Source: Thermoanaerobaculia bacterium (GTDB lineage Bacteria; Acidobacteriota; Thermoanaerobaculia; UBA5066). From it: a DNA stretch of 64,000 bases. Location: positions 26,885-90,884 of the forward strand of contig DASXVJ010000029.1 in the NCBI GenBank assembly GCA_036504335.1, read 5' to 3'. Positions 943-63,251 of the stretch are shown in pieces (within the stretch, counting starts at the first letter, position 1; every line of letters starts with the position of its first letter). The notes under the pieces are model-generated. The model saw nothing but the letters and a program-made list of their open reading frames with translations. It ran no database searches and was not told the DNA's origin. The position numbers were made by a program, and so were the translations under genes.

Positions 943-1741
943 CCCAGGCGCGGTCGTCCGGATAGCCCGCCTGAAGCGCCGCGGCGCGGAACCGCACGGG
1001 GGGCTCGAACGGCGGCTCGTCGGTCAGGACGATCGTGCCCCAGTGCATCGCGACGAGCGTCGAGGCTTTGAGGTCGCGGCCGGCGGCGACGGCTTCCTCC
1101 GGGTTCAGGTGGACGGGCCGCATGATCGACGCGGGCTCGTACGCCCCGATCGGCAGGAGCGCGGCGTCGAACGGGCCGTGCGTCCGGCCGAGTTCGGCGA
1201 AGACGGGCCCGTATCCCGTGTCGCCCGCGAAGTAGAGAGCCCGCGTCGGAGAAGCGATCTTCCACGAGCACCAGAGGGTCTCGTTCCGGTCGAAGGGCGT
1301 GCGGCCGGAGAAGTGGATGCTGGGGAGGCAGGAAAGGGAGAGCGAGGAGGAAGAAGGAGAGGAAGAGGAAGATTTGCTTAGAAAGGTGCCCTCTCCCCAT
1401 CCAAGCTCTCGGACATCCGGGAAACCGCGGCGCTCGAAGAAGCCGCGCAGGCCGCGGGGAACGACCGCCGCCGCCTTCCCTCTTACCTTCAAAGAAATCT
1501 TCTCTACAGACGGTCCGTCGAGGTGGTCGTAGTGGTTGTGCGACAGAAGGACGACGTCGATGTCGGGCAACTCTTCGATCGCGAGCCCCGGCGGGACGTA
1601 GCGCTTCGGGCCGAGGCCCGCGATCGGGCTCGCGTAGTCCGAGAGGAACGGGTCGGTCAGGATCGTGAAGCCGCCCGTCCGGATGAGGAAGCACGCATGG
1701 CCGAGCCAGGTCAGGCTCTCGGGGCCAGCGGCGAGGAGCAT
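908..1741 (-). CDS. MBL-fold metal-dependent hydrolase (UPF0173-like)
   Basis: WLGHACFLI...LLSHNHYDHLD motifs. The ORF track extends it to 1882, but ATG 1741 (MLLAAGPESLTWLGHACF) matches the family N-terminus. It contains two in-frame repeat copies (1474-1507, 1331-1398) giving VEKISLKVRGK and [18 protein letters not shown] inserts. Confidence 0.6.
   Translation of the reverse strand: MLLAAGPESLTWLGHACFLIRTGGFTILTDPFLSDYASPIAGLGPKRYVPPGLAIEELPDIDVVLLSHNHYDHLDGPSVEKISLKVRGKAAAVVPRGLRGFFERRGFPDVRELGWGEGTFLSKSSSSSPSSSSLSLSCLPSIHFSGRTPFDRNETLWCSWKIASPTRALYFAGDTGYGPVFAELGRTHGPFDAALLPIGAYEPASIMRPVHLNPEEAVAAGRDLKASTLVAMHWGTIVLTDEPPFEPPVRFRAAALQAGYPDDRAWVMRIGETREIR
1331..1398 (+). repeat. Repeat-family copy F1 in the MBL gene
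   Basis: GGAAAGGGAGAGCGAGGAGGAAGAAGGAGAGGAAGAGGAAGATTTGCTTAGAAAGGTG. Confidence 0.7.
1474..1507 (-). repeat. Repeat-family copy R2 in the MBL gene
   Basis: revcomp GTAGAGAAGATTTCTTTGAAGGTAAGAGGGAAGG. Confidence 0.65.
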
Positions 1742-4238: not shown

Positions 4239-4267
4239 GTCTGAGGCGAAGATCGCCGCTTCGCGGC

Positions 4268-4328
4268 GAGGAAGAAGATTTTCTTAGAAGGTGAAGAGGG
4301 GGAGGGCGAAACAGCCCGCCCCCTCTTC
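4268..4328 (+). terminator. Repeat-family copy F2 plus GC hairpin (GAAGAGGGGGAGGGCG-loop-GCCCGCCCCCTCTTC) downstream of osmC
   Basis: Perfect 15-bp inverted repeat immediately after the core GAAGATTTTCTTAGAAGGTGAAGAGGG. There is no U-tract. Confidence 0.5.
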
Positions 4329-4368: not shown

Positions 4369-5001
4369 ATGATGAAACCGCGCCGCAGCATTCTTACTTT
4401 CAAAGCAATTCTTCTTCTTTCTCTTCCTCTTTTCCTCTGTCCCGCCGCGTTCGCCGACGACAAGCCCGCGGCGGCTGCCGCCGCCGCCCCAAGCCAGGAC
4501 GAGATGATGAAGGCCTGGATGGCCCAGGCGACGCCCGGCCCGACGCACAAGGCGCTGGAAGCCGCCGTCGGCTCGTGGGACGTGAAGACGAAGATGTGGA
4601 TGGCGCCGGGCGCCCCGCCCGCCGAGTCCGCCGGCGCGTCCGAGAACAGGATGATCCTCGGCGGCCGCTTCCTCGAGCAGCGGTACGAGGGGACGATGAT
4701 GGGTCAGCCGTTCAGCGGAATCGGGGTCACGGGCTACGACAACTACAAGAAGAAAGTCGTGGCGACCTGGATCGACTCGATGTCGACGTCCGTCATGGTC
4801 ATGCAGGGCACGGCGGACAAGACCGGAAAGGTCATCACGTGCTTCGGCGCGATGGACGACGTGGTCGCGAAGAGGCCGATGAAGGTGAAGTCCCGGGTCA
4901 CGTTCGTGGACGCGGACCACCACACGTACGAGTCCTGGCACACCCTTCCCGACGGCAAATGGTCGCAGGACCTCGAAATCGCCTACACGCGGAAGAAGTA
5001 G
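4369..5001 (+). CDS. DUF1579 family secreted protein
   Basis: ATG with GGAAAGCAGGAGG SD. Signal peptide MMKPRRSILTFKAILLLSLPLFLCPAAFA, whose h-region is encoded by repeat copy R3 (4389-4438). Confidence 0.55.
   Translation: MMKPRRSILTFKAILLLSLPLFLCPAAFADDKPAAAAAAAPSQDEMMKAWMAQATPGPTHKALEAAVGSWDVKTKMWMAPGAPPAESAGASENRMILGGRFLEQRYEGTMMGQPFSGIGVTGYDNYKKKVVATWIDSMSTSVMVMQGTADKTGKVITCFGAMDDVVAKRPMKVKSRVTFVDADHHTYESWHTLPDGKWSQDLEIAYTRKK
4389..4438 (-). repeat. Repeat-family copy R3, encoding the signal peptide of the DUF1579 protein
   Basis: revcomp AGAGGAAAAGAGGAAGAGAAAGAAGAAGAATTGCTTTGAAAGTAAGAATG. Confidence 0.65.
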
Positions 5002-5002
5002 C

Positions 5003-6620
5003 TCAGAGACTCTTCAGCGCCTCGAGCGCGGGCTCGAGCGCCTGGCGTCGCCTGAAGAAGTCGGCCCACGGGTCGCGCTTCTTCAGGCGCGCCGCGAAGT
5101 TCCCGATCGTGAAGTCCTCGGCGCGGAGGGACGGCACGACCTCGCTCCAGGCGAGCGGCGTCGAGACGGGCGCGTGGGGGCGCCGCCGGACGGAGTAGGG
5201 CGAGACGACGGTCTGGCCGAACGCGTTCCGGAAGGAGTCGAGGAAGACGCGCCCCTTCCGCGCCGCGATCCGCATCTCCATCGTGAGGTCCTTCGGCCAG
5301 GCCGCCGCGAGGCGCGTCCCGAGCGTCTTCGCGAACCAGGTGACCTCCTCGGTGCCCGGGCCGCGGACGATCGGCACGAAGACGTGGAGCCCCTTGCCGC
5401 CGGACGTCTTCACGTACGAGACGAGCTCGAGGGCGTCGAGCGCCTGCTTCACCTTCAGAGCGGCGCCCACGGCGTCCGTGATGAGGCCCGAGTCCGGGTC
5501 GAGGTCGAAACAGACCCAGTCGGGCCTGTCGAGCTCGTCGGCGCGGCTGCCCCAGACGTGCGTCGCGATGCAGCCGAGGTTCGCGAGCGCGAGCTGCGTC
5601 TCGAGCTTCCCGCCCACGACCGTGTTCGTCACCTTGCGGTCCTTGCCGTGGCGCACGACGACGGTCGGCGTGCCGGGCGGCAGGCTGGCGGGCTTCTCCT
5701 TCTGGTAGAAGCACTCGCCGCCGAGGCCGTCCGGGCAGCGCTCGAGCGAGAGCGGCCGGTCCTCGACCCACGGGCGCAGCTTGTCGAAGACGCCCGCGTA
5801 GAACGCGACGAGGTCGCCCTTCGTCCACCCCTCCTCGGGCCAGAAGACCTTGTCCGGGTTGGAGACGGGGACGGGGAAGGAAGACGAAGAATTCTTGGAA
5901 GGTGAGGAGGGGAGAGGCGCACCCCGGGGGCGTGAATGCCAGACGGCGGGGGACTCCTTTTGCTTTCGCTGAAGCAGCTTCGGATTCTTCAGCAGCTTCT
6001 CGACCTCGGCGACGGGGTCGCCCGTGGAAGCCTTCTCGACGTCGCCGCCTTCGTCGATGGCAATCTGCGTGAGCAGCCGGTTCGATACGACGGACCGCGG
6101 GCGCGTCTCGGCGACGTCCTCGTCCGAGGCGAAGTCGTCGCGGTGCTTGATGAGGAGCCACGAAGGCTTCGACGAGCCGCCCCATCCCTTCGTGCGGACC
6201 AGCACCCACGAGCCCTTCAGCTTCTCGCCGTGGAGCGTGAACTTCAGGTCGCCCTTCTTCAACGCCGCGTCCACGTCGGGCGACTCCGGCGCCCACGTGC
6301 CGCGGTCCCAGACCATCACCGTGCCGCCGCCGTACTCCGCGGCCGGGATGATTCCCTCGAACGCCGCGTACTCGATCGGGTGGTCTTCGACGTGAGACGC
6401 CATCCGCTTGACGGCCGGGTCGAGCGAGGGGCCCTTCGGAATCGCCCACGAAAGCAGGACGCCGTTCCATTCCAGCCGGAAGTCGTAGTGGAGGGCCGTC
6501 GCCCTGTGCTTCTGGACGACGTAGGCGAGGCCTTTTCCGCTCCTCTTCGGCGCCTTCGCGCCGGCAGGCTCGGGGGTGACGTCGAAGCGGCGTTTCTTCC
6601 GGTATTCCTCGAGAGGCATC
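5003..6620 (-). CDS. ligD: Non-homologous end-joining protein LigD, phosphoesterase (PE) + polymerase/primase (Pol) domains only; no ATP-ligase domain
   Basis: HYDFRLEWNGVLLSWAIPKGPS (PE domain). CFDLDPD...SGGKGLHVFVP...FLDSFRNAFGQTVVSPYSVR (LigD Pol). The ORF-track 1140-aa ORF is real only from ATG 6620 (538 aa). Repeat copy F3 (5875-5917) sits in the PE-Pol linker (PSSPSKNSSSSFPVPV). Confidence 0.75.
5875..5917 (+). repeat. Repeat-family copy F3 in the ligD linker
   Basis: GGAAGGAAGACGAAGAATTCTTGGAAGGTGAGGAGGGGAGAGG. Confidence 0.6.
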
Positions 6621-6757: not shown

Positions 6758-9300
6758 ATGGACGACACCCAGCATCCTATCGATCCGGATGTGAAGGAAG
6801 CGCTCCTCGAGCTTCAGTGCTACCTGTCCGACAGCCTCGCGCCTCTCATGGTGGCCGAGTCGATCAACCTGCTCCTCGACCAGCCCGCTGCGATCGCTGC
6901 GACCGAGGTGCAGGCGTGGACGATCGCGCAGTTCCGGGGACGGGGCCAGAACGTGCCGATCTCGGACTACCTCTACCACGCCGTCGAGAAGCTCCACGCG
7001 ATGGGGCAGTACGAGCTCGTGCCGCGCGATCCGCTGCGCCGCTTCCTCCAGGACCTCTCCCAGCAGCTTCTGGCGTTCTGCCCCCCGGCCGACCGGGAAA
7101 TGCTCCGTCAGAATCTGGGCCGGTTGGGCCAGGCGGAGAGCGTCCTCGCGGCCCCGGTCGAGATGCTGCACCGGCAGGGAACGACCGCCGACGCGCCTTC
7201 CGCCGCCAAGCGCGCGTCCGGCGAGCACGGCGTGCCGCTGTCGTCTCAGACGGTCTCCGACCTCCGGCACCTCTCGATGCTCCTCGAGCGCCTCGGCCCC
7301 CTCCAGGCGCTGCCCCCGTCGGAGGCCGCTCTCTTCGGCGCCGCGGCGGCCCCCGGGAGCCAGGCGCCGGCCCCCGGAGGCGGTTCGCCCGCGGCCTTCG
7401 GGGCCATGATCCAGTCCCCGCGGGAAGCGCTCGTGGCCCAGGTCCTCGCGGTCGCCGCGATCGCGGCCCGGTCGGACGGGGAGCTCGCTCAGGCGCTGGA
7501 GCGCCTGCGCGCCGCCGGGGTGGACGTGCCGTCCGGCGAGGTCATCCGGACCCTGGGCCGGTCGATCCCGCCGTGGCCTCTCTCCCTTCCGTCCGAGCCC
7601 GTCGAGGAGGCGCTGTCGTCCGCGCGCGCCTCCGCGACGCAGGCCATTCGCCGCGTCGTCACCCTTCCCAAGGACCAGGAGGAGGTCGGGAAGCGCTTCC
7701 ACGAGATGGTGGCCGCGGCCGTCGAGCAGCTGAACCAGGGCTCGCTGACGCGGGCCTCGCGGATGTTCGACGTCGCCGAGAAGCTCGTCGTCGAGAACAA
7801 GGTCAGCCCTCTCTCGCTCGAGGCCACGCGGAAAAAAGCCCAGGATTCGGTGGACCTCGAGCGCGTCCGCAGTCTCGGCGAGGACGCGCGGAACCAGCAG
7901 CCTCTCGCGAGAATCCTCTCGTTCTTCCCGGGGCTCTCGGTCGGGACGCTCATCCAGGAGCTGCACGTCGAGGAGAAACGGGAACGCCGCCGCCTCCTCC
8001 TCTCCCTCCTCGAGATTTACGGCCCCGAGGCGCGCGCGGCGTCGCTCGACGTTCTCCGCCAGCTCGCCGCCGTCGGCGCCCCCGAACAGGATTGGCACTT
8101 CAAGCGGAACCTCCTCTACCTTCTCCGCAAGACGCCGCGGCCGGCGGATCAGACGCCGGACGCGGAGATGGACGCCGTCATCCCGTTCGCCGACCCTTCG
8201 CTCCCGCCGCCGATCGTCAAGGAGGCGATCGCGGGCCTCGCGGCGATCAAGCACGAGCGCTCCGAGGCGGTGCTCGTCACCCTCGTGCAGGGCCTCGAGG
8301 CGATGCTCGCGAAGAAGGGCGACGCCCCGTTCGACGAGGCCGAGCTCCAGCCGCTCCTCGACCGGGCGGTCTCGGCGCTCGCGCGATTCGGAAGCCCGAC
8401 CGCGCGGCGCGTCGTCGTCGAGCACGGGCTGAAGAGGAAGAGCGGCCTCGGCGACGTCGGCGCCCGGCTGGCCGAGCTCGCGAGCCAGGACCTCACGGAC
8501 GACCCGGAGCTCGTGAGCCTCCTCCTCAAGAGCGCGCGGGCCGAGATGCCCTTCAAGGTGTTCGGCCTCACGCTGAAGAAGCGCGAGGACCGGCTCGCTC
8601 CGATCGTCGAGGCGCTGTCCGGCACCCCCTCACCGGGCGTCCGGAAGGTGTTCGAGGAGATCGTCGAGAAGCACGCGGACACGCCTGCCGCCAGGGCGGC
8701 GTCGCGCGCTCTCGCGGCGTTCGACGCGCCGAAGGCCGCGGAGGAAGGGCAGGCGAGCCTCATGGGCGACCTCGCGATCTTCGAGCTGCCTGCTCTCCTC
8801 CAGAGCCTCGCCTCCACGGAAGTGACGGGCGCGCTGTCGCTGCGCGACACGGGCGGTTCCGTGGTCGGGAAGTTCCTCCTCGAAAACGGCAGGATCCGGT
8901 CCGCCGAAGCGTTCGGGCTGAAGGGCGACGACGCCTGCTTCCAGCTGTTCGAGCGCCCCACCGGCGGCACGTTCTCGTTCGTGCGCCAGCCGGCGCTGCC
9001 TCCCCTCCGCGAGGGCGAGAGCCTGCGCGAGGTCGTCTCGATCCTTCTCGAGGGAATGAGGCGCTACGACGACTTCCAGCGCTTCTCGGCGCTCGTTCCC
9101 GACGACCTCGTGCTCGCGCCGACGGGGACGAAGCCGTCGACGGAGCCGGAAGAGGCGGACGGCGCGCTCCAGAAGGCCGTGTGGACGAAGGCGTCCGGCG
9201 GGGCGACCCCGAAAGCAATCGAGTCGGCGGTGGCCGCCGACTCGTACCGGATCCGGAGATTGCTCGTCAGGTGGGTGGAAGAGGGGAGCCTGAAGGCCGC

Positions 9301-14542: not shown

Positions 14543-14616
14543 AGAGAGACAAAGCGAAAGAGTTTCTTAGAAAGTATTGCGGGCCGGGGGATTCTTCTCC
14601 CGGCCCTTTTTCATTG
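14531..14616 (+). terminator. Repeat-family copy F4 + rho-independent terminator (GGGCCGGGGG-ATTCTTCT-CCCGGCCC-TTTTTCATT)
   Basis: Starts at the MFS stop codon: polypurine tract, core GAGTTTCTTAGAAAGT, then GC hairpin and T-tract. Confidence 0.7.
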
Positions 14617-14657: not shown

Positions 14658-15860
14658 GTGCCCGCTGAAAGCACGATCCGCCCGTCAGCCTTTCTAAGGA
14701 ATTTTCTTCGGTCCGAAGCTCTCTCTGGAATCCTCCTCCTCGCCGCCGCGGTCGCCGCGATCGCCCTCGCGAACTCGCCTCTCAAGGACGCGTACGCCCA
14801 CGCCACGCACCTTCCCCTCCGGTTCGGCGACGGTTCGTGGCGCGTGGACACGACGCTCCTCCATGCGACCAACGACGGGTTGATGGCCGTCTTCTTCCTC
14901 GTCGTCGGGCTCGAGATCAAGCGAGAGTTCCTGACGGGAGAGCTTGCCGGGAAGGGCGCCGCGATTCTCCCCGTGGCGGCCGCGTGCGGGGGAGCGGCCG
15001 TCCCCGCGGCGATCTACGCCGCGTTCAACGCCGGGACGCCCGCGGCGCACGGATGGGGCATCCCGATGGCGACGGACATCGCGTTCGCCGTGGGCGTCCT
15101 CGCGCTCCTCGGCCGGCACGTGGCGCCCGTGTTCAAGGTCTTCCTCACCGCCGTGGCGGTCGTCGACGACCTGATCGCGGTTCTCGTGATCGCCTTCTTC
15201 TACACGTCGGGGCTGAACCTCGGCGCGCTCGCCGTCGTGGCCGGCGCGTGCGCGGTCCTCTACGCGTTCAACCGGGCGGGCGTCCAGTCCCTCGCCCCGT
15301 ACCTCCTCGTCGGAGCCGTCCTCTGGGCCGCCATGGCGCGGTCCGGCGTCCACGCGACGATCGCGGGCGTCCTGCTCGGCATGAGCGTTCCCGCGACGGG
15401 CGCGCAGACATCGCCCCTCCGCCGGCTGGAGCACGCTCTCCACCCCTGGGTCGCGTGGGGGATCATGCCGGTCTTCGCCCTCGCGAACGCGGGCGTGACG
15501 GTGCCGGCGGGGCAGGTTGGAGCGATGCTCACGTCGCCGATCGCGCTCGGAATCGTCGTCGGGCTCTTCTTTGGAAAGCAGGTCGGGATTTTCGGGACGA
15601 CGTTCCTGCTGGCACGGCTCGGCGTCGGCACGGTTCCCGCGGACGCCCGGGGACGGCGTTCTCTCTGGGGCGTCGCGCTGCTCGGCGGGATCGGGTTCAC
15701 GATGTCGCTCTTCGTGAGCGGACTCGCGTTCCATGGAGAAGCGATGACGGACGTTTCCAAGGCCGCGATCCTCGCGGGCTCGTTGATGTCGGGTCTCGCC
15801 GGCGCGGCCGTTCTCGCGAGCGTCCCCGAGCCGGTGGCGGGAGACGCGGACGCCGGTTAG
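14658..15860 (+). CDS. nhaA: Na+/H+ antiporter NhaA
   Basis: FLRSEALSGILLLAAAVAAIALANSP N-terminus, GIPMATDIAFAVGVLALLG (the NhaA DxAF motif region) and VDDLIAV. The N-terminal TM1 codons (14676-14740) are a reverse-orientation repeat patch. Confidence 0.8.
   Translation: MPAESTIRPSAFLRNFLRSEALSGILLLAAAVAAIALANSPLKDAYAHATHLPLRFGDGSWRVDTTLLHATNDGLMAVFFLVVGLEIKREFLTGELAGKGAAILPVAAACGGAAVPAAIYAAFNAGTPAAHGWGIPMATDIAFAVGVLALLGRHVAPVFKVFLTAVAVVDDLIAVLVIAFFYTSGLNLGALAVVAGACAVLYAFNRAGVQSLAPYLLVGAVLWAAMARSGVHATIAGVLLGMSVPATGAQTSPLRRLEHALHPWVAWGIMPVFALANAGVTVPAGQVGAMLTSPIALGIVVGLFFGKQVGIFGTTFLLARLGVGTVPADARGRRSLWGVALLGGIGFTMSLFVSGLAFHGEAMTDVSKAAILAGSLMSGLAGAAVLASVPEPVAGDADAG
14676..14740 (-). repeat. 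Repeat-family copy R9, in-place patch in nhaA TM1
   Basis: revcomp GAGGAGGAGGATTCCAGAGAGAGCTTCGGACCGAAGAAAATTCCTTAGAAAGGCTGACGGGCGG. Confidence 0.55.
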
Positions 15861-16299: not shown

Positions 16300-17826
16300 A
16301 TGGCACCGTCCGCACCCGTTCACGGCAATTGGATCGCCGGCAAGCACGTTCCCGCCCGCTCGGGCCGAACCTTCGAGAACCGCAACCCCGCAGACGTGAC
16401 CGACCTGATCGGCCGCTTCGCGGATTCCGACGAGCGCGACGTCAGGGACGCCGTCGATACGGCCGCGGAGGCCTACAGGAGCTGGCGCCTCGTCCCCGGC
16501 CCGCAGCGCGGCGAGATCCTCTATCGGCTCGGCGAGATCCTCCGCGACCGCAAGGAACAGTATTCGCGCGACATGACCCGCGAGATGGGCAAGGTCCTGA
16601 AGGAAGCCCGAGGCGACGTGCAGGAGGCCATCGACATGGCATTCCTCATGGGAGGCGAGGGCCGCCGCCTGCACGGACAGACGACGCCCTCGGAGCTCCC
16701 GAACAAGTTCGCGATGTCCGTGCGGGCCCCGATCGGCGTCTGCGCGTTCATCACGCCCTGGAACTTTCCGATGGCGATCCCGGCATGGAAGTCCACGGCG
16801 GCCCTCGTGTGCGGGAACACGGTCGTCGTGAAGCCCGCCACGGACACGCCGCTCTCCGTCGTGAACTTCGCGAAGGCGCTCGAGGACGCGGGCCTCCCGC
16901 CCGGCGTCTTCAACGTCGTGACGGGCTCGGGGTCGAAGGTCGGGAACCCGCTCCTCAAGGACCCGCGCGTGAAGGTCGTCTCGTTCACGGGCTCGACGTC
17001 CGTCGGGCGCTCGATCAACGAGGCCTGCGCGCCGTCGTTCAAGCACGTCCACCTCGAGATGGGCGGCAAGAACCCGATCATCGTGATGGACGACGCGAAC
17101 CTCGAGCTCGCCGTCGACGGGGCGATCTGGGGCGCGTTCGGGACGAGCGGGCAGCGCTGCACCGCGTCCTCGCGCCTCCTCGTGCACCGCAAAGTCGTCA
17201 GGAAGTTCACGGCGATGCTCGGCGAGCGCGCCGCCGCCCTGAGGGTCGGCAACGGGCTCGACGAGAAGAACGAGATGGGCCCGGCGATCAACGAGAGCCA
17301 GCTCGACACGGTCCTCGACTACATTTCGATCGGCAAGGACGAGGGCGCGAAGCTCGTCTCCGGCGGCAAGCGCCTCACGGGCAAGGGCCACGACAAGGGC
17401 TGGTTCGTCTCGCCCACGGTGTTCGGCGACGGCGACCGGAAGATGCGGATCGCGCGCGAGGAGATCTTCGGCGCCGTCACGGTCGTCGTGCCGATCTCGT
17501 CGCTCGAGGAGGCGATCGACATCTCCAACGAGTCGGAATACGGCCTCTCGTCGGCGATCTTCACCCAGGACATCAACAAGGCGTTCGTCGCGATGCGCGA
17601 CCTGGAGGCCGGCATCTTCTACGTGAACCTGCCGACGATCGGCGCCGAGACGCACCTGCCGTTCGGCGGGACGAAGCAGACCGGCAACGGCCACCGCGAG
17701 GCGGGACTCGCCGCACTGGACGTCTTCAGCGAGTGGAAATCGATCTACGTCGACTACTCCGGGACGATCCAGAAGGCGCAGATCGACGTGCCGGCCGGCG
17801 AGACGTCCGCGAAGAAGAAGAGATAA
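16300..17826 (+). CDS. NAD(P)-dependent aldehyde dehydrogenase
   Basis: [19 protein letters not shown] and GQRCTAS (catalytic Cys) motifs. 508 aa. Confidence 0.85.
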
Positions 17827-17898
17827 GAGAAGAAAAGACTTCTTAGAAGGTCAAGAGGGCGGCCGGTCGCGCGGAATCGCGGCCGGCCGTTTTCATTC
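17808..17898 (+). terminator. Repeat-family copy F5 + bidirectional terminator hairpin (CGGCCGGTCGCG-CGGAAT-CGCGGCCGGCCG) + TTTTCATT
   Basis: Lies between the convergent ALDH (stop 17826) and aminotransferase (stop 17893). Core GACTTCTTAGAAGGTCAAGAGGG. Confidence 0.65.
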
Positions 17899-21422: not shown

Positions 21423-24395
21423 CTACCCGCCGACGACGGCGCGGCAGCGGGCGCAGACGCCGTCCTCGCCGGGCTCGACGTCCTTCTTGACCTGCCAGCA
21501 GCGCGGGCACTTGGCGCCTTCGGCGGCGCGCGCGAGCACGGACTCGGCGTCTCCCTCCCGCACGACCGACGGCGTCCCGAACACGTCGGCCAGCCTTTCT
21601 TCTGAAAGGTGAAGAAGGGCGAGCGCGCGGTCGACGTTCTCGCCGCGCCCGATCGCGGCGACGGCCTGGGACGCGGAGCCGACCTTGTTTTCGCGCCTCA
21701 GGGGCTCGAGGGCCTGCAGGAACGCCGCTCGAAGCGCGAGGACCACGCCCCACGCCTCTCTTTCATTCGAAGGAATCTCCGAAGTCTTCAGATCCCCCCA
21801 GCTCTTCAGGAACAAGGCGGACGGGTCCTTCGCGTTCCCGGGCAGCGATTCGAATATCTCCTCGGCCGTGAACGGACAGATGGGGGAGAGGGCGACCGCG
21901 ATCGTCTCCACGAGTTTCCAGGCGGCCGTCTGCGCCGATCGGCGCACGGGGTCGTTCGGCGCGAGGACGTAGAAGGCGTCCTTGCGCACGTCACACCAGA
22001 AAGCCGAGAGGTCGACCGTGACGAAATCCAGGAGCCGCCGGGCGACGCCGTGGAATTCGTGACGGCCGTAGGCCTCTCGCGCCTCGCTCGCGAAGCGGCC
22101 CGCGGCGTCGAGGACCCAACGCTCGAGCGGCTCGAGTCGCGCGTCCGGAACGGCGTCCTTCGCCGGGTCGAAGTCGAAGAGGTTCGAGAGCAGGAACCGC
22201 GCCGTGTTCCGGATCTTGCGGTACGCCTCGGACGTGCGCTGGAGGATCTCCTTCGAGAGCGGGTCGTCGTTCGTGTAGTCGAGCGACGCGACCCAGAGGC
22301 GGATGACGTCGGCGCCTTCGGTCTTGAGCAGGTCCTGCGGCTCGATCGTGTTCCCGAGCGACTTCGACATCTTCCGGCCGTCGCCCGCGACGACGAAGCC
22401 GTGCGTGAGCACCGTGTCGAAGGGCGCGCGGTTGGTCAGCGCGACCGACGTGAGGAGCGACGACTGGAACCAGCCGCGGTGCTGGTCGTGACCTTCGAGG
22501 TACATCACGGGGACCGGCGGCTGCGTCGTGTACGGGTCCGCGAGGCCGTAGTCGCCCGAGCGGAGGACGGCTGCGTGCGAGACGCCCGAGTCGAACCAGA
22601 CGTCGAGGATGTCCTTCAGCTTCTCGAAGTTCGTGCCCCCGCAAAGAGAACAGGAGGCCGAAGACGAAGAGGAAGAGGAAGAGGAAGAGGAAGATTTGCT
22701 TAGAAAGTAAGACGGGGGGAACGCGTCGTCGTACCACGCATTGGCGCCGTGCTGCCGGAAGGCCCCTCTTACCCTTTCAAAGAAATCTTCTCTTTCTCTC
22801 TTCTCGTTCTCCGTTCCGCCGCCCTCGACTCTGGGGAAATGGCTGACGATCCCCTTCTCTTTGCAGTCCACGCAGCGCAGGAACGTGATCGGCGAGCCCC
22901 AACGCCGCTGGCGGGAGATCGTCCACTCGAGGCGGTTGTCGACCATCGCGCCGATGCGGTTCTCGCTGTAGGAGGGGATCCACTCCACGCGCCCCCGGAT
23001 CTCGCCCATCGCGCGCTCGCGCAGCGCCCCGAGGTCGATGAACCACTGGTGCGTCGCCCGGAAGACGACCGGGTTCTTGCAGCGCCAGCAGTGGGGGTAG
23101 GAGTGCGGGGAGGACTTCTGCGAAAGGAGGATGGAGGCGCCGGCGCGCCCGTCCTTCAGGGCCTCGAGGACGGCGACGTTCGCGTCGTCGGCGGGCGTCT
23201 TCGGCGTGACGACGCGTTTTCCCCTGAGGAATTCCGGGGCGTTGACGTCGTAGTAGCCGCCCTCGTCCACGGGGCAGAGCGCCGGGTCGTCCACCTTGAA
23301 GCCGGCGCGGCGCACCACCTCGTAGTCGTCGCGGCCGTGGCCGGGCGCGGTGTGGACGAGGCCCGTGCCGTCCGTCGTCGAGACGTGCTCGCCGAGGAGA
23401 AATCCGAAGTTATCGAATGGGTCGGACGCAAAGGGCCGGGCGTAGCGCAGGGCCGGCAAGGCCCCGGCGATCACTTCGCCGCTTTTCTTCGAATGAGGAA
23501 GAGGGTGTGCGTCGCGCCAGCCGAGCGCAGCGGTCACCTGCGGGACGAGCGACTCGGCGACGAGGTAGGCGGCGCCCGGCTCTGATTCCCTCTTCAGAAG
23601 TACGTATTCGATTTTCGGACCCAGCGCGATGGCGCGGTTCGCGGGCAGGGTCCAGGGGGTCGTCGTCCAGATGACGGCGTAGAGTTGCCGCACGTCGCCC
23701 GACTGAGCGAGAGCGCCCCACACACCGTTCAAAGAATCTTCTCTTAGGGGCATCGCCAGGTAGATCGACCAGTCCGTCTTGTCCTCGTACTCGATCTCCG
23801 CTTCCGCGAGCGCCGTCCGGTCGTGGACGCACCAGAGAACGGCCTTGAAGCCGAACGACACGAGGCCTTTCTCGACGAACCGCCCGAAGGCCCGGGCGAT
23901 CTCGGACTGGTAGGAGAAGTCCATCGTCCGGTACGGCTTCATCCACGCGCCGAGGACGCCGAGGCGCATGAAGTCGGTCCGCTGGACGTCGATCCACTTT
24001 TCGGCGGAGGCGCGGCAGGCGTCGCGGATCGCGACGTCGGACATCCCGCGCTTCTTCGGGCCGAGCTCCTTGTCCACCTTGAGCTCGATCGGGAGGCCGT
24101 GGCAGTCCCAGCCCGGCACGTACGGAGCGTCGAAGCCGTCGAGCGTGCGGGACCGCACGACGAGATCCTTGAGGATCTTGTTCATCGCCGTGCCCATGTG
24201 AATCCGGCCGTTGGCGTAGGGCGGACCGTCGTGGAGGATGTACCCGGGAGCGCCCTTCCGCGCGGCGCGGATGCGGCCGTAGAGGTCGTCCTCCTGCCAG
24301 CGGGCGAGGCGCGGAGGCTCGCGCCTCGGGAGATCCCCTCTCATCGGGAAGTCCGTTTTCGGGAGCAGAAGGGTGGATTTCCAGTCGCGGCCCAT
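21423..24395 (-). CDS. ileS: Isoleucine--tRNA ligase
   Basis: [23 protein letters not shown] (HIGH), [25 protein letters not shown] and a C-terminal CPRCW zinc motif. Contains repeat copies at 21593-21622, 22641-22719 (13-Ser run), 22764-22817 and 23725-23750. Confidence 0.9.
21593..21622 (+). repeat. Repeat-family copy F7, in-place patch in the ileS C-terminus
   Basis: CCTTTCTTCTGAAAGGTGAAGAAGGGCGAG. Confidence 0.45.
22641..22719 (+). repeat. Repeat-family copy F8 with (GAAGAG)5 microsatellite, in-frame insertion in ileS
   Basis: GAAGACGAAGAGGAAGAGGAAGAGGAAGAGGAAGATTTGCTTAGAAAGTAAGACGGGGGG. Gives [20 protein letters not shown]. Confidence 0.75.
22764..22817 (-). repeat. Repeat-family copy R4 in ileS (second member of a composite)
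   Basis: revcomp GAGAAGAGAGAAAGAGAAGATTTCTTTGAAAGGGTAAGAGGGG. Confidence 0.7.
23725..23750 (-). repeat. Repeat-family copy R5 (short) in ileS
   Basis: revcomp CCCCTAAGAGAAGATTCTTTGAACGG. Confidence 0.4.
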
Positions 24396-24474: not shown

Positions 24475-25419
24475 ATGACGTCGCTCAAGACCGGTGTCGT
24501 CGGCTGCGGCTACCTCGGCCGGCACCACGCGCGCATCCTGTCCACGCTCGAGGGTTCGAGTCCGGCCGGCTTCGTCGAGACGGACGACGCCGCAGCGGCG
24601 GCGATCGAGGCCGCTCACGGGGCCGCGGGGATGGTCCGCCGGCGGTCGATCCGGGATCTCCTGGACGAGGGGGCCACGGCCGTCGTCGTCGCGTCACCCA
24701 CCGTCACGCACGCCGCCGTCGCCGAGGAGCTCCTCCTCGGAGGCGCGGACGTGATGGTCGAGAAGCCGATCACCGCGACGCTCGCCGAGGCGGACCGCCT
24801 CGTCGCGATCGCCCGGGAGAAGGGCCGCGTCCTGCAGGTCGGGCACATCGAGCGCTTCAACCCGGCCGTCGCGGCCATCCGGCCGCTCGTCACCAACGTG
24901 AAGTTCATCGAGGCGCACCGCCTCGGGGTGTTCGTGCCGCGCGCGCTGGACGTGGACGTCGTCCTCGACCTTCTCGTCCACGACCTCGACATCGCGCTGG
25001 ACCTCGTGGGACGGCCGGTCGTCGAGATCCGCGCCGTCGGCGTCCCGATCCTCTCGAACAAGATCGACATCGCCTCCGTGCGGCTGTCGTTCGAGGGCGG
25101 GTGCGTCGCGAACCTGACGGCCTCGCGCGTTTCGCAGGAGAAGACGCGGAAGTTCCGGTTCTTCCAGCCGGACTGGTACTTCTCGATCGACACCCAGAAC
25201 CGCGACGTGACGGCGTTCCGCCTGGACCGGATGACGGGCCCGCCGCGCATCGTGCCGTGGCCGGTCGCCGTCGAGCCGCAGGACGCGCTGACCGCCGAGG
25301 ACGCCGCGTTCCTGAAGGCGTGCCGCGCGCGCAGCGAGCCCGAGGTCACCGGCGAGGCCGGGCGCGCGGCGCTGAAGCTCGCGCTCGACATCCTCGAAGA
25401 GATGGGCCGGAACCGTTGA
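24475..25419 (+). CDS. Gfo/Idh/MocA family NAD-binding oxidoreductase
   Basis: VVGCGYLGRHHA Rossmann N-terminus and EKPIT motif. Confidence 0.7.
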   Translation: MTSLKTGVVGCGYLGRHHARILSTLEGSSPAGFVETDDAAAAAIEAAHGAAGMVRRRSIRDLLDEGATAVVVASPTVTHAAVAEELLLGGADVMVEKPITATLAEADRLVAIAREKGRVLQVGHIERFNPAVAAIRPLVTNVKFIEAHRLGVFVPRALDVDVVLDLLVHDLDIALDLVGRPVVEIRAVGVPILSNKIDIASVRLSFEGGCVANLTASRVSQEKTRKFRFFQPDWYFSIDTQNRDVTAFRLDRMTGPPRIVPWPVAVEPQDALTAEDAAFLKACRARSEPEVTGEAGRAALKLALDILEEMGRNR

Positions 25420-25470
25420 AGATGAGGAAAGAGAAGAAGAAGATTTCTTCGAGTGGAGGAGAGAGAGGGA
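25419..25470 (+). repeat. Repeat-family copy F9 at the mtnP 5' end
   Basis: GAAGATGAGGAAAGAGAAGAAGAAGATTTCTTCGAGTGGAGGAGAGAGAGGG. Confidence 0.65.
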
Positions 25471-26327
25471 CGCCGCGCATCGGCCTCATCGGGGGCTCCG
25501 GTCTCTACAACCTGCCCGGGTTGAAGATCACCTCCGAAGTCGCGCTTTCGACTCCCTTCGGAAAGCCGTCCGACTCTTACTTTCTGGGAAATCTCTCTTC
25601 TGTCCCTGTGGCATTCCTCGCGAGGCACGGACGCCACCACGCGCTCCTGCCCACTGAGGTCAACTACCGCGCCAACATCTGGGGACTGAAATCCCTCGGC
25701 TGCTCATGGGTGATCTCCGCTTCCGCCTGCGGCTCGATGAAGGAGGCCTACAGGCCGACCGACATCGTCCTGCCGGACCAGTTCATCGATCTCACGAAGA
25801 GCCGCGCCTCGACGTTCTTCGGCGAAGGCATGGTCGGGCATGTTTCGTTCTCGCACCCCGTCTCGACGGCGCTCCTCGACGCCCTCGAGGCGGCGGGGAA
25901 GGCCGAGAAGGCCGTCGTCCACCGCGGCGGGACGTACGTCTGCATGGAAGGGCCGCAGTTCTCCACGAAGGCCGAGTCGCTCCTCTACCGGTCCTGGGGC
26001 GTCGACGTCATCGGCATGACGAACGCGACGGAGGCGAAGCTCTGCCGCGAGGCCGGGATCGCCTACGCGTCGGCCTGTCTCGTGACGGACTACGACTGCT
26101 GGCACGAGGAGGAGGGCCCGGTCAGCGTCGAGGCCGTCCTCGCCGTCCTGAAAGCGAACGCGGCGACCGCCAACCGCGTCCTCGCGAACGCCGTGAGCCG
26201 GCTCGACCCGGCGCGGCCGAGCGACTGCGCCGACGCCCTCGCCTTTGCAATCCTCACGCACCCGACGCGCGTTCCCGCCCGGACCCGGAAGCGGCTCGCG
26301 CTCCTCACGCAGAAAGGACGTCCATGA
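25422..26327 (+). CDS. mtnP: S-methyl-5'-thioadenosine phosphorylase (PNP/MTAP family)
   Basis: IGLIGGSGLY, VISASACGS and GMTNATEAKLCREAGIAYASACLVTDYDCW. The N-terminal 16 aa (MRKEKKKISSSGGERG) are encoded by repeat copy F9. Confidence 0.75.
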   Translation: MRKEKKKISSSGGERGTPRIGLIGGSGLYNLPGLKITSEVALSTPFGKPSDSYFLGNLSSVPVAFLARHGRHHALLPTEVNYRANIWGLKSLGCSWVISASACGSMKEAYRPTDIVLPDQFIDLTKSRASTFFGEGMVGHVSFSHPVSTALLDALEAAGKAEKAVVHRGGTYVCMEGPQFSTKAESLLYRSWGVDVIGMTNATEAKLCREAGIAYASACLVTDYDCWHEEEGPVSVEAVLAVLKANAATANRVLANAVSRLDPARPSDCADALAFAILTHPTRVPARTRKRLALLTQKGRP

Positions 26328-32652: not shown

Positions 32653-35123
32653 CGACTCCGTCCGTCCCCCCCTCACGCAGCGACGAAATCCGGCGCATCG
32701 AGACGAAGTGGCGCGAGCGATGGGAACGGGACCGCGCCGCGTTCGTCGACACGGGCAAGCCCGCAGGCGACGGCACGTACCTCCTCGTGATGCTGCCGTA
32801 CCCCTCGGGCGACCGGCTGCACGTCGGGCACGCCCGCACGTACTTCCTGACGGACGCGCTCCACCGCTACCTCCGGCAGCGCGGACGGACGATCTTCTGC
32901 CCGATGGGCTGGGACGCGTTCGGCCTGCCGGCCGAGAACTACGCGATCCAGAGGGGCGTCCACCCGCACACCTCGACGCTCGCGAACATTGCGGCGATGA
33001 AGGAGCAGTTCCGGGCGTGGGGCGTCCTCTACGACTGGACGAAGGAAGTCACCACCTGCGAGCCGGCCTACTACCGCTGGAACCAGTGGTTCTTCCTCAA
33101 GCTCCTCGAGAAGGGCCTCGCCGTGCGGCGGAAGTCCGCCGTGAACTGGTGCCCCTCGTGCGAGACGGTGCTCGCGAACGAGCAGGCCGAGGGCGGCGTG
33201 TGCGACCGCTGCGGGACGCCCGTCATCCAGCGCGAGCTCGAGCAGTGGTTCCTGAAGATCACGGACTACGCCGAGAGCCTTCTCGCCGGCCTCGACACGC
33301 TCGGGAAGTGGCCCGAGAAGGTCGTCACGATGCAGCGCAACTGGATCGGGAAGTCGGTCGGCGCCGACCTCGACTTCGCGATCCCCGCGCTCGGCGAGAG
33401 CGTGCGCGTCTTCACGACGCGCCCGGACACCGTCTACGGCGCGACCGCGCTCATCCTCGCGCCGGAGCACGCGCTCGTCCCGCGCCTGATCGCAAACCAT
33501 CCGGACGAGGCGGGGCTGCAGACGTGGGTCACGTCCGTCCGCGACCAGGAACGCATCGCGCGCGAGGCCGAGGGCGCCGAGAAGGACGGCCGGGACACGG
33601 GCGTCAAGGCGATCAACCCGTTCACCGGGCAGGAGATTCCGGTGTGGCTCGCGAACTTCGTCGTCGCGGACTACGGCACGGGCGCGCTCATGGCCGTCCC
33701 CGCGCACGACACGCGGGACTTCGAGTTCGCGAAAAAGTACGGGATTCCGATCGTGAAGGTCATCGAGGGTGGCGACCTTCCCTATACGGGCGAGGGCCCT
33801 CTCGTTGCCTCTGGCACCTTCTCAGAAAATTCCTCTTCCGCCGCCCGCGAACTGATTGCTGCGGAAGCCGCTTCGCGAAGGATCGGCGGTCCCAGGATCC
33901 GCTATCGCCTCCGGGACTGGCTCATTTCCCGCCAGCGCTACTGGGGGACTCCGATCCCCATGGTGAAGTGCCCGACGGACGGCTGGGTGCCGGTGCCGGA
34001 GAAGGACCTGCCGATCGTGCTTCCGCCCGACGCGCCGTTCACCGGCAAGGGCGGGAACCCGCTGGAGAAGGTCGCGGCCTTCGTGAACACCACCTGCCCG
34101 AAATGCGGCGGCCCGGCGCGCCGCGAGACGGACACGATGGACACCTTCGTGGACTCGTCCTGGTACTACATGAGGTACCTCGACCCCTCGAACGATCGCG
34201 CCCCGTTCGACCCGGCGCGCGCCGCCGAGTGGGCGCCCGTCGACCAGTACATCGGCGGAATCGAGCACGCGATCCTCCACCTTCTCTACGCGCGCTTCTT
34301 CACCCGCGTCATGAAGGACCTCGGCCTCGTCACGTTCGAGGAGCCGTTCTCCGCCCTGTTCAACCAGGGAATGATCACGCGCCAGTCCCCGACGGGGCGC
34401 GTCGAGAAGATGTCGAAGTCGCGCGGCAACGCCGTGTCCCTCGACCCGCTCATCGCGGAGAAGGGCGCCGACGCCGTGCGCGCGTTCGTCCTCTTCCTCG
34501 GGCCGCCCGAGAAGGACGCCGAGTGGAGCGACGAGGGCATCAGCGGGCCGGAGCGCTTCCTCGGGCGCGTCCGGACGGCCGTGGAGCGCTTTGTCGCGAC
34601 GGGCGCCGACGTGCGCGGCGAGCCCGCCGCGGCGGACACGCCGGCGGCGCGCGCCCGGCACATGGCCGTCAAGAAGCTCACGGAAGATTTCGACGCGTTC
34701 TCGTTCCACACGGCCGTCGCGCACCTCATGGAGTTCGCGACGCACGCCGCCGGCCTCGTCGGCGACGCGAAGGCCGACAGGGGAGAGACCGCCGCGACGC
34801 TCCGCGCGCTCGTCGCGCTCCTCCACCCGATCGCCCCGCACCTCTCCGAGGAGCTGAACGAGAAGCTCGGCGGCACGGCGAGCCTCCTCGTCTCCGGCTG
34901 GCCCGCGTTCGACCCGAAGCTCGCGGTAGAGGAGATCGCCTCCGTCGCCGTGCAGGTCTCGGGAAAGGTCCGCAGCGAGGTCAAGCTCCAAAGAGGATCT
35001 TCTGAGAAAGAGGCGCGGGCGGCAGCGGAGGCGGATCCTGCGGTGGCCCGGTGGCTCGTGGACAAGCAGGTCGTGAAAGTGATCTGGGTCCAGGACCGCC
35101 TGCTCAACCTGGTCGTGAAGTGA
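32649..35123 (+). CDS. leuS: Leucine--tRNA ligase
   Basis: ATGA overlap. [16 protein letters not shown] (HIGH), [39 protein letters not shown] and C-terminal LLNLVV. Repeat patches at 33816-33843 and 34989-35021. Confidence 0.9.
33816..33843 (-). repeat. Repeat-family copy R6, in-place patch in leuS
   Basis: revcomp GGCGGAAGAGGAATTTTCTGAGAAGGTG. Confidence 0.5.
34989..35021 (+). repeat. Repeat-family copy F11, in-place patch in the leuS C-terminus
   Basis: AAAGAGGATCTTCTGAGAAAGAGGCGCGGGCGG. Confidence 0.45.
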
Positions 35124-35173
35124 GAGACGATAGAAAAGACCGAAGAGAAGATTCTTCGAGTGGTCGCGGGCGA
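35123..35173 (+). repeat. Repeat-family copy F10 at the leuS stop
   Basis: GAGAGACGATAGAAAAGACCGAAGAGAAGATTCTTCGAGTGGTCGCGGGCG. Confidence 0.55.
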
Positions 35174-35734
35174 ACGCTGCCCGGAGCGCGCCGGCTGCGC
35201 CGCGCCTCCGGCTCTTCATCATTCAAAGAATTCTCTCTCTTCTTTCTCGTTCTCTTCGTCTTCGGCTGCGGTTATTCGCTCGTGGGCACCGGCGCGAGCG
35301 CGCTTCCCCCGAACGTCAAGACGGTCTGGGTGCCGACGTTCATCAACGACACGACGGTCGTGAGCGCCGAGCAGAAGCTCACTGACGCGGTCCTGCGGGA
35401 GCTGTCGGCGCGCGGACGCCTGAAACCGGTTCGGGAACGCTCCCAGGCGGATGCGGAGCTGAACGGACGCCTGACGTCGCTGAGCCTCACGCCGGTCCGC
35501 TTCGACGACGCGGGTCTCGCGGTCGAGTACCAGCTGACGATCACGGCGAACCTCTCCCTCGCCGAGAAGTCGACGGAGAAGATTCTGTTCAAGGAGCCGT
35601 CGTTCGTGTTCCGCCAGCCGTACAACGTGCCGGGGAGCTCGAAGTCGTACTACGACCGCGAGCGGGAAGCGATCGAGGCCCTGGCGCGGCCGTTCGCCCA
35701 GAGCCTCGTCACGACCATCCTGGAAGGGTTCTAG
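35162..35734 (+). CDS. lptE: LPS-assembly lipoprotein LptE (start codon unresolved)
   Basis: Conserved leuS-lptE neighbourhood. Lipobox LFVFGCGY. LptE-like body (TVWVPTFINDTT...YQLTITANLSL). No ATG/GTG/TTG lies between the leuS stop and the signal peptide. The signal-peptide h-region is encoded by repeat copy R7. Confidence 0.5.
   Translation, partial: GRGRTLPGARRLRRASGSSSFKEFSLFFLVLFVFGCGYSLVGTGASALPPNVKTVWVPTFINDTTVVSAEQKLTDAVLRELSARGRLKPVRERSQADAELNGRLTSLSLTPVRFDDAGLAVEYQLTITANLSLAEKSTEKILFKEPSFVFRQPYNVPGSSKSYYDREREAIEALARPFAQSLVTTILEGF
35221..35262 (-). repeat. Repeat-family copy R7, encoding the lptE signal-peptide h-region
   Basis: revcomp GAAGACGAAGAGAACGAGAAAGAAGAGAGAGAATTCTTTGAAT. 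Confidence 0.6.
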
Positions 35735-62821: not shown

Positions 62822-63214
62822 TCGGGCCGGACAGGCGGTCGCCGCTCTTGACGCCTCGGCGGAAGGAGGGGAGGAAAGTCCGGACTCCAGCGGGCAGCGT
62901 GCCGGAGAAATCCCGGTCGGGGCAACCCGAAGGAAAGTGGCACAGAAAACATACCGCCGACGCGCCGCAAGGCGCAGGTAAGGGTGAAAAGGTGCGGTAA
63001 GAGCGCACCGCGGTTCCGGCAACGGAACTGGCAGGCGAAACCCCACGCGGAGCAAGGCCAAATAGGGTGACGGAAGGGGCGCCCGCCCTCGCGGCTCACG
63101 CCGACGTCACCGGGTCGGTCGCTCGAGCCCGTCCGGAAGGACGGGCCTAGAGGAATGACCGCCAGCCGGAAGGCGCGAGCCGACCGGCCACAGAATCCGG
63201 CTTATCGTCCGGCC
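62822..63214 (+). ncRNA. rnpB: RNase P RNA, bacterial type A
   Basis: GGAGGGGAGGAAAGTCCGGACTCC...AGGTAAGGGTGAAAAGGTGCGGTAAGAGCGCACC...GGCAAC...GGAGCAAGGCCAAATAGGG...ACAGAATCCGGCTTATCG. This matches the universally conserved P4/P10-12/P15 regions of E. coli M1 RNA almost base for base. Confidence 0.88.
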
Positions 63215-63251
63215 CGAGTCATTTCTCCTCCCAAGCTGCGAGAATTCCCCC

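Follow-up and report, generated by a model that had tools for sequence, protein, structure and literature searches.

How does an essential enzyme of a GC-rich bacterium come to carry two AT-rich, inverted copies of one sequence, one of them coding for a long serine tract? This question is raised by the isoleucyl-tRNA synthetase gene (ileS) in the 64,000-nucleotide stretch of Thermoanaerobaculia DNA analysed here (the window; GC 0.70). The gene is a minus-strand open reading frame (ORF; 21423-24395) encoding 990 aa, with tRNA-synt_1 homologues in Pfam and a match to PDB 8c9e (E=8e-198), and it hosts three copies of the sequence, which we call arms. The source names of IleRS homologues place the window in Acidobacteriota, class Thermoanaerobaculia. 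An initial annotation of the window took two of the arms for a composite insertion in ileS and noted the same element in an MBL-fold hydrolase gene. We find instead that the ileS segment is a member of a dispersed family of arms, a point on which we have next to no doubt. This previously undescribed family occurs in one 70%-GC Thermoanaerobaculia clade and not in sister lineages.

Two inverted copies of one repeated element are present in ileS, just as had been proposed. Arm A (22645-22722; nhmmer E=2e-9, and visible in the sequence itself) has the GA-rich orientation on the plus strand, and on the gene strand is a 3′ CT-arm that codes for PPSYFLSK and a run of serines. From 22651 to 22712 the plus strand (GC 0.47) reads GAAGAC(GAAGAG)4GAAGATTTGCTTAGAAAGTAAGA, which on the gene strand gives SYFLSK followed by 12 consecutive serines (aa 568-579). 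The tract had been described as a run of 13 serines; it is real, with 13 serines per 14 residues, but its longest uninterrupted stretch is 12. It is encoded by a hexamer microsatellite, (GAAGAG)x5.8 (22659-22694), giving 12 minus-strand serine codons (TCT/TCC/TCG), and Tandem Repeats Finder reports a near-perfect tandem array at 22660-22694 (unit GAAGAG, 5.8 copies, 96% matches). Arm B (22758-22820, minus strand; nhmmer E=3e-9), on the gene strand the 5′ GA-arm, codes for a 17-residue peptide, its core lying over an ancestral FFERV helix according to the codon alignment. Here a second patch of low GC (22764-22817, GC 0.44) reads CTCTTACCCTTTCAAAGAAATCTTCTCTTTCTCTCTTCTCGTTCTCC. GC is 0.71 between the two patches, and the centre (22723-22757, minus strand) consists of native GC-rich ileS codons homologous to arm-free outgroups. 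The distance between arms A and B is 35 nt by profile boundaries and ~50 nt by low-GC boundaries. The third arm is core-only (21594-21617, plus strand), identified from a weak nhmmer match and alignment to outgroups. On the gene strand it reads CTTCTTCACCTTTCAGAAGAAAGG, with the codons CTT CTT CAC CTT TCA GAA GAA AGG for LLHLSEER; the clade conserves it, and relative to outgroups it shows substitutions alone, with zero length change. A possible weak partner of this third arm lies around 21756-21777.

Across the family, an arm consists of an outer variable GA-rich run and then an inner core of approximately GAAGATTTTCTTAGAAGGTGAAGAGGGG, or in fuller form GAAGATTT(N)CTT(A/T)GAA(A)G-GT(A/G)AGAGGGG. 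Arms tend to stand head-to-head, their GGGG ends pointing toward each other across the centre. The window contains 5 matches to an 18-nt core pattern, against 0 in 100 shuffles, and an arm profile finds 13 arms there at E<0.01, in pairs #1 to #6 and as single arms at 5876, 14547 and 17805. Arms occur at 0.4-1.7 per 10 kb in the window and in the related loci L082-L087, whose IleRS identity is at least 74%, and the profile found none in L088 (66% identity; a 22-kb locus), L089, L002 or nine other outgroup loci. One scan of metagenome DNA for a degenerate version of the arm gave 107 loci totalling 649 kb, of which 2 are ileS. Those with GC >0.6, together with the window and L082-L087, form a census set of 791 kb that contains 145 arms, ~1.8 per 10 kb or ~1 per 5.5 kb; the exact-match pattern of the scan biases the consensus derived for the family.

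The geometry of the arms is consistent. Adjacent arms are arranged +/- 11 times and -/+ once, and a reverse-complement partner (score at least 16, within 350 nt) was found on the inner side of 46/134 arms and on the outer side of 1/134. For about half of the arms no partner could be detected. Paired arms are imperfect, with ~85-90% complementarity, and only the arms repeat, the centres being unrelated, locus-specific GC-rich DNA of 31-322 nt. The sub-motifs of the core differ by indels (GAAAGGGTAAGAG, GAAGGTGAAGAG, GAAAGTAAGAC). We also note that the core includes AGAAGGTGA / CTTAGAAAGG, for example at 4279-4296, which resemble what we take to be an extended Shine-Dalgarno sequence, complementary to the 3′ tail of 16S rRNA, an assumption on which nothing here relies. 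The initial annotation had recognised the same element, in the same frame, in the MBL-fold hydrolase gene. We confirm this copy (pair #1; 1331-1392, plus strand) by profile and orthologue alignment, and find that it too has an inverted partner, overlooked until now, at 1470-1511 (minus strand), which reads PSVEKISLKVRGK on the gene strand and lies over ancestral EALPGKER.

The feature in ileS is old. In an alignment of ~110 IleRS orthologues, FPPSYFL(S/R)(K/N/E) and a 14-residue GA-arm peptide occur in every orthologue down to ~65-74% identity, while outgroup IleRS (at most 62% identity) have FFDRVVAVF...FPAAAFLPEG at the matching positions. By this alignment the net insertion in ileS amounts to ~6 aa on the 5′ side plus the serine run. 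At the DNA level, eight syntenic relatives were compared. The arm cores are almost base-identical in the six genomes of at least 74% identity (AGA GAA GAT TTC TTT GAA AGG GTA AGA; TCT TAC TTT CTA AG), in contrast to the ordinary GC-rich codons at these positions in the outgroups at 62% and 61%. In the same six genomes the serine runs are written with TCT/TCC/TCG; relatives thus use TCT/TCC-rich codons and not the ordinary GC-rich serine codons that would have marked an ancestral protein feature. Separately, in the sister lineage, ileS of L088 and proteins P0052-P0061 have a fixed short SFFLSSSS(S)C with a 5′ region partly recoded to GC-rich codons, which could be an arm pair that has decayed or else a proto-arm pair.

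The serine run following SYFLxx ranges from 0 to ~22 residues among the IleRS orthologues. In one 90%-identity cluster, that of P0001, five members lack the run (35 aa from AWYD to WFDSG) and three have 10-12 serines (45-47 aa), whereas in clusters without a run the length of the segment is invariant. Copy number therefore varies among close relatives by whole codons, as in a microsatellite, which bears out the earlier suggestion of an in-frame, length-polymorphic hexamer tract. Such a difference inside a single cluster supports slippage, and from these comparisons we consider it very probable that slippage generates the polymorphism. The tract is like other in-frame coding microsatellites in that (GAAGAG)n shifts length by multiples of three and the serine tract is polymorphic in close relatives. 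Unlike free-standing ones, it is the tail of a dispersed arm and has a complementary tract across a native segment.

Relative to 8c9e, a solved IleRS structure, the protein has extra residues precisely at both arm positions. In an AlphaFold2 (AF2) model of IleRS, with a mean predicted local distance difference test score (pLDDT) of 86.3, the GA-arm peptide prolongs helix 529-549 at its N-terminus, and residues 568-577 of the serine run have pLDDT <50 and no secondary structure, so that the run is modelled as a disordered loop, the kind of location predicted for it at the outset. Both arm peptides fall between the CxxC motifs at aa 508-511 and 582-585. More distant IleRS (at most ~61% identity; P0074-P0091 and sequences beyond them) have lost the CxxC...CxxC motifs around the arm region. 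The zinc-knuckle-like insertion around the arms is itself lineage-specific.

Where do the arms lie with respect to genes? Genes were defined by a codon log-odds caller, trained on the gene calls supplied and checked against independent calls for L083. By this measure 57% of arms lie well inside genes, compared with 76% of random positions, and 73% are within called ORFs; the remaining 27% are intergenic, compared with 8% of random positions, and the family is thus not extragenic in the manner of repetitive extragenic palindromic sequences (REPs) and their inverted doublets (REPINs). Pairs are placed within genes (ileS, MBL hydrolase) or across gene starts (#2, #4, #5 and #6). Within genes the two orientations are about equally frequent (42 and 40). 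Among GA-arms in coding sequence, 53/56 occupy the two stop-free frames, and the encoded peptides recur: a 15-residue form or ..KIFLEGEEG/KISLKGKRG... for GA-arms, and PSSPSKKSSSS.., ..SKEIFSSS.. or, in signal peptides, hydrophobic LTFKAILLLSLPL for CT-arms. The same arm nucleotide sequence is nevertheless found in three reading frames and in non-coding DNA. The in-frame, stop-free rule indicates that arms are read through rather than bypassed or spliced out. Spliceosomal-like splicing at GTAAGA...CTCTTAC, translational bypass and excision of the centre can be rejected, since conserved coding sequence makes up the centre and the arms are in-frame and stop-free.

What, then, are the arms? The reading we prefer, to which we give about an even chance, is that they constitute an old, clade-restricted, dispersed and non-autonomous palindromic repeat family at the DNA level, nearest in kind to Rickettsia palindromic elements (RPEs) and to MITEs (miniature transposable elements with inverted repeats). 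That the family is selfish in the way of RPEs or MITEs appears slightly less probable than that. We infer a selfish mobile origin, action at the level of DNA, and slippage as the mechanism of length change. On this account the family would have colonised the ancestor of the present Thermoanaerobaculia clade, and copies would have survived where they were harmless, in intergenic DNA beside terminators, at N-termini, in signal peptides and in surface loops, being read through where stop-free. In IleRS, the GA-arm would have lengthened a helix and the CT-arm would have supplied SYFLSK and a disordered serine loop inside the CxxC...CxxC insertion. The outer runs would behave as hexamer or trimer microsatellites, subject to replication slippage in multiples of three, and so produce tracts of serine (or of Glu/Lys/Arg) of variable length.

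The closest parallel is with RPEs (Ogata et al. 2000, as summarised in PMC10969869), whose in-frame insertion at high frequency is described there. The likeness extends to short, dispersed, hairpin-forming repeats with no known transposase, found frequently and in frame in unrelated housekeeping genes. They encode peptides that recur at surface positions tolerant of them, and are old, confined to a single clade and conserved where orthologous sites are compared. An RPE is a contiguous ~100-150 bp with a conserved middle of its own, inserted as a unit, whereas here the arms alone are conserved and the centres are locus-specific. Moreover, unlike RPEs, the present arms are AT-rich in a 70%-GC genome, have microsatellite tails and lie with their cores over ancestral codons; the host phylum and base composition differ from those of the Rickettsia elements; and RPEs are reported to lose repeat identity over time (PMC6649704), while the arms keep their nucleotides.

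Inverted, hairpin-forming doublets that also occur as singlets, are non-autonomous and have many copies are likewise typical of REP/REPIN and MITE families. REPINs are almost exclusively extragenic, replicate as units and have a fixed spacer and GTAG/CGTC tags (PMC3733652), and MITEs are homogeneous in size, with terminal inverted repeats conserved at their outer ends and with target-site duplications. In contrast, over half of the arms lie well inside genes, their spacers are variable and native, and it is the inward GGGG end that is conserved while the outer ends are variable runs. A further parallel is offered by the coding palindromes of Nematomorpha mitochondria, in which inverted arms within coding genes encode conserved residues and are gained and lost between species (PMC6649704). 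They are evidence that conserved coding sequence is compatible with inverted repeats, which conversion may maintain, and a non-insertional origin by template switching or conversion was proposed for them (PMC6649704). However, those palindromes are perfect, up to 284 bp long and unique to their locus, with arms kept identical, whereas the arms described here are imperfect and share one genome-wide consensus.

Several observations weigh against a selfish repeat family. The first part concerns codon usage, as selfish repeats would be expected to decay. In seven related genomes, which are not independent of one another, the proportion of A or T at third positions is 0.57-0.65 in the ileS arm cores, compared with 0.15 in the centre and 0.12 in the rest of the gene. 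Arginine is encoded by AGA/AGG in 30/30 cases within the arms against 13% in the rest of ileS, leucine by CTA in 8/8 against 1.1%, valine by GTA in 6/8 against 1.4%, and serine by TCT in 61% against 9.6%. Elsewhere in ileS, about two-thirds of the codons whose amino acid is invariant have changed synonymously among the seven genomes; the AT-rich arm codons have therefore been held rather than merely inherited, which on sequence comparison implies maintenance at the nucleotide level. Orthologous arms also share locus-specific variants, such as GAAAGGGTAAGAG in ileS, which speaks against loci having homogenised one another. An arm resembles its orthologues more than its paralogues, and this argues for constraint at each locus as opposed to neutral decay or concerted evolution.

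The second part concerns how arms arise. Three loci are at odds with insertion of a whole unit: in the genes for IleRS, the MTAP-like protein and the MBL hydrolase, the centre is native, the cores replace ancestral codons and the length changes by 0-2 codons. There is no contiguous unit with a conserved middle, and centres are unrelated between copies. In the MTAP-like gene (pair #4), the GA-arm (25414-25470, plus strand) forms an N-terminal extension, MRKEKKKISSSGGERG, and the CT-arm (25566-25622, minus strand) has turned ancestral SDSYVTGELSGVPV into SDSYFLGNLSSVPV with no change in length, by ~17 substitutions in 33 nt, all of them toward the consensus. In the MBL hydrolase, EKISLKVRG lies over EALPGKER and GTLLRK over EETRV, and core-only intermediates exist. 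No target-site duplication was seen when the boundaries of the leuS and lptE insertions were read by eye, nor was an autonomous master copy seen in the loci analysed; the arm motif had zero matches on viral contigs and the ileS segment zero on plasmids. Indel-free overlay of ancestral codons and retention of rare codons do not fit a simple selfish insertion.

Insertion and loss of larger pieces are also found. A segment of 66 nt (a GA-arm with GC-rich sequence) in leuS of L082 is lacking in the window at the same codon boundary. In L084 an extra unit of ~150 nt (7740-7893), made of a CT-arm and ~90 nt of GC-rich sequence and not found in the other genomes, lies at the N-terminus of the MTAP-like protein, annotated there as 354 aa compared with ~300 elsewhere. 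In the window and in L087, lptE has a ~100-nt in-frame unit insertion in its signal peptide. L085 retains the MTAP 3′ arm with its 5′ partner gone, and the leuS/lptE junction of L086 (a minus-strand stretch of ~70 nt that lies immediately below the stop of leuS at 2088) contains fused outer runs alone, AAAAAGAGA|TCTTCCTCTTC, which looks like the outcome of a deletion of the inner arms and centre. Both routes occur, namely overlay in place and gain or loss of larger pieces.

Overlay without indels and retention of rare codons are what would be predicted if the arms were functional or drive-maintained DNA recognition sites for clade-specific machinery, arising in situ by substitution. We regard this as a possibility, although an unlikely one, with two candidates: an uptake-signal-like motif that biased recombination keeps, or sites bound in pairs by a protein of the nucleoid or one derived from a transposase. 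In its favour are the indel-free origin in place of three arms (the third one of ileS, the 3′ one of MTAP and the 5′ one of MBL) and the use of places that were already similar (ancestral TTCTTCGA/FFE and E..L..K.R). Recognition sites would likewise explain why rare codons are retained locus by locus across deep divergence, why one intergenic arm is conserved in four genomes while its adjoining hairpin sequence differs, why L085 keeps an arm without a partner, and why in the L088 lineage, which lacks the family, the ileS arms would have decayed.

Inverted pairs of uptake sequences are associated with terminators. Like the arms, the uptake sequences of Pasteurellaceae (uptake signal sequences, USS) and Neisseriaceae (DNA uptake sequences, DUS) are clade-specific, number hundreds of copies, lie mostly in ORFs (35-65%) with a reading-frame bias and at poorly conserved residues, and arise by in-place substitution (PMC2817400). 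The arms for their part occur independently of orientation, with frame bias, an ORF majority and intergenic enrichment by terminators. However, uptake sequences have a short, nearly invariant core free of indels and no microsatellite tail, whereas the sub-motifs of the arm core are separated by indels, which is unusual for a protein-binding site, and the tails vary in length. Whole-unit insertions with non-native centres also exist. Known uptake sequences favour preferred codons (PMC2817400), whereas the arms use rare ones; they are 4-5 times denser than the arms, and uptake leaves the head-to-head pairing across 30-300 bp unexplained. A still narrower proposal, which we think rather improbable, is that the arms are cis-acting sites of a clade-specific DNA-handling system, either an uptake-signal-like drive or a domesticated repeat-binding protein. 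Coding and non-coding DNA would then have been rewritten in place to a ~28-bp consensus and held there against a strong GC bias. If true, a genome-wide signal compatible with coding would exist as a new class, beyond the two families of bacteria with known uptake sequences.

Could the pairs instead act in RNA, as cis-regulatory or stabilising mRNA hairpins, RNase III sites or occluders of the ribosome-binding site (RBS), kept by selection on RNA structure? Pairs can form long stems (z = -1.95 and -3.27), pairs #2, #4, #5 and #6 bracket an RBS and start codon, and arms 3′ of stop codons adjoin terminator hairpins. Nonetheless, we hold this explanation to be improbable. The 24 intragenic pairs contain 732 Watson-Crick matches and 122 mismatches, far from perfect arm identity, and on the sense strand these mismatches comprise 27 G.U and 30 A.C, with transversions (65) dominating; at the modest power of this sample there is no wobble bias of the kind expected of an mRNA hairpin. 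Heterotypic TTAGAA/TTTGAA pairs bring further mismatches. The core identity of partners was 0.63 and that of unrelated arms 0.73, a comparison of modest power with a background enriched for pattern-selected arms, so that partners resemble each other no more than unrelated arms do; local template-switch copying and co-evolution of arms are rejected on the same figures. Moreover, the many unpartnered arms, one of them conserved as such, and the equal frequency of both orientations relative to transcription speak against a hairpin. Nor is there a general excess of folding on the inner side, the GC-adjusted residual being ~0 for intragenic arms, and a module of an arm plus an adjacent GC-rich hairpin is likewise rejected. 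Searches of Rfam at gathering and permissive thresholds found no family at the arms, and a scan for sigma-70 promoter and terminator consensus sequences found no association, except for one terminator hairpin beside arm 14547.

The original reading, in which a composite two-copy mobile element inserted into ileS (and the MBL hydrolase gene) and added ~38 aa between conserved segments, we think unlikely. Two inverted repeat copies are present, outgroups lack the serine run and the ~6 aa on the 5′ side, and relatives share the same AT-rich codons. But the cores cover ancestral FFERV/FL, for which outgroups have GC-rich codons, the centre is native, and the net gain is ~6 aa plus the serine run. 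Nor is the insertion private to two genes, since orthologues down to ~65-74% identity share the feature and the family is genome-wide and clade-wide.

Inverted repeats with a shared consensus that flank short segments at many loci, some of them with an RBS and start codon, could also suggest intragenic invertons, in which an invertase flips the centre and recodes or inactivates the gene. This we consider very improbable. The orientation of the centre agreed with that of the flanks in 65/65 orthologous comparisons (0/65 inverted), the native orientation is found in all ~110 IleRS orthologues and in the 49 MBL orthologues displayed, arms that differ by indels offer no identical crossover core, and the ileS centre is conserved and essential. 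Least probable of all is a purely protein-level feature, with selection for protein function acting on low-complexity linkers, serine-rich or charged: the peptides are conserved and evidently tolerated, and a helix extension and a disordered loop are plausible as linkers, but the same nucleotides occur in three frames and in non-coding DNA, the rare-codon choice is conserved, and the copies are arranged as inverted repeats.

To return to the palindromic repeat family that we prefer, if it is borne out, a little-studied class of Acidobacteriota would have hundreds of short repeats in its proteins, including essential aminoacyl-tRNA synthetases and signal peptides. What is known of RPEs in Rickettsia would then have a second case, independent of the first, in a lineage that is GC-rich and free-living. 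It would be an unusual one, in which arms flank native coding sequence, overlie ancestral codons and keep rare AT-rich codons over deep divergence. The arms would offer a tractable system for asking how repeats enter proteins without breaking them, what holds coding nucleotides beyond selection on amino acids, and how microsatellite tails vary protein length. On the practical side, they are liable to confuse the calling of gene starts and to inflate low-complexity annotation, and they may cause misassembly in metagenomes of the clade.

The remaining arms of the window lie at gene starts and in intergenic DNA. In pair #2, an intergenic GA-arm after a stop codon (4262-4302, plus strand) is followed by a centre holding the RBS and ATG and by a CT-arm (4382-4443, minus strand) that forms the h-region of a signal peptide, SILTFKAILLLSLPLFLC. 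Pair #5 (49525-49793, plus strand) lies at a gene start and consists of a GA-arm at 49525-49585 and a degenerate CT-arm at 49729-49793. Pair #6 (35120-35263, plus strand) comprises a GA-arm, a 48-nt GC-rich centre and a CT-arm in the signal peptide of LptE. LptE probably starts at a GTG that overlaps the leuS stop (AAGTGA, 35120-35122), as it does in the outgroup L088, whereas the gene caller set a later start. With the start at GTG 35120, the entire arm pair falls within an unusually long signal peptide, of ~48 aa before the lipobox cysteine.

A single or weakly paired arm lies at 5876-5915 (plus strand). Two others are found at stop codons, one immediately after the stop (14547-14588, plus strand), with a weak partner at ~14690-14730, and one across the stop codon of an Aldedh gene (17805-17862, plus strand), which adjoins a GC-rich terminator hairpin and is conserved in L082-L084. 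The latter is present only where both flanking genes converge. Terminator-type GC-rich hairpins (14581-14606 and 17863-17890) lie immediately inside these post-stop arms and, on the opposite strand, the CT-rich complement of the arm forms the pyrimidine-rich tail of such a hairpin.

Elsewhere in the window, an RNase P RNA of class A (Rfam RF00010, 268 bits; 62823-63220, plus strand) is the sole match at the Rfam gathering threshold. Lastly, direct repeats of 106 nt and 73 nt (families D6 and D20) recur at a spacing of 717-732 nt between 61705 and 62761, within the ORF at 59163-62792, and are probably tandem protein-domain repeats.

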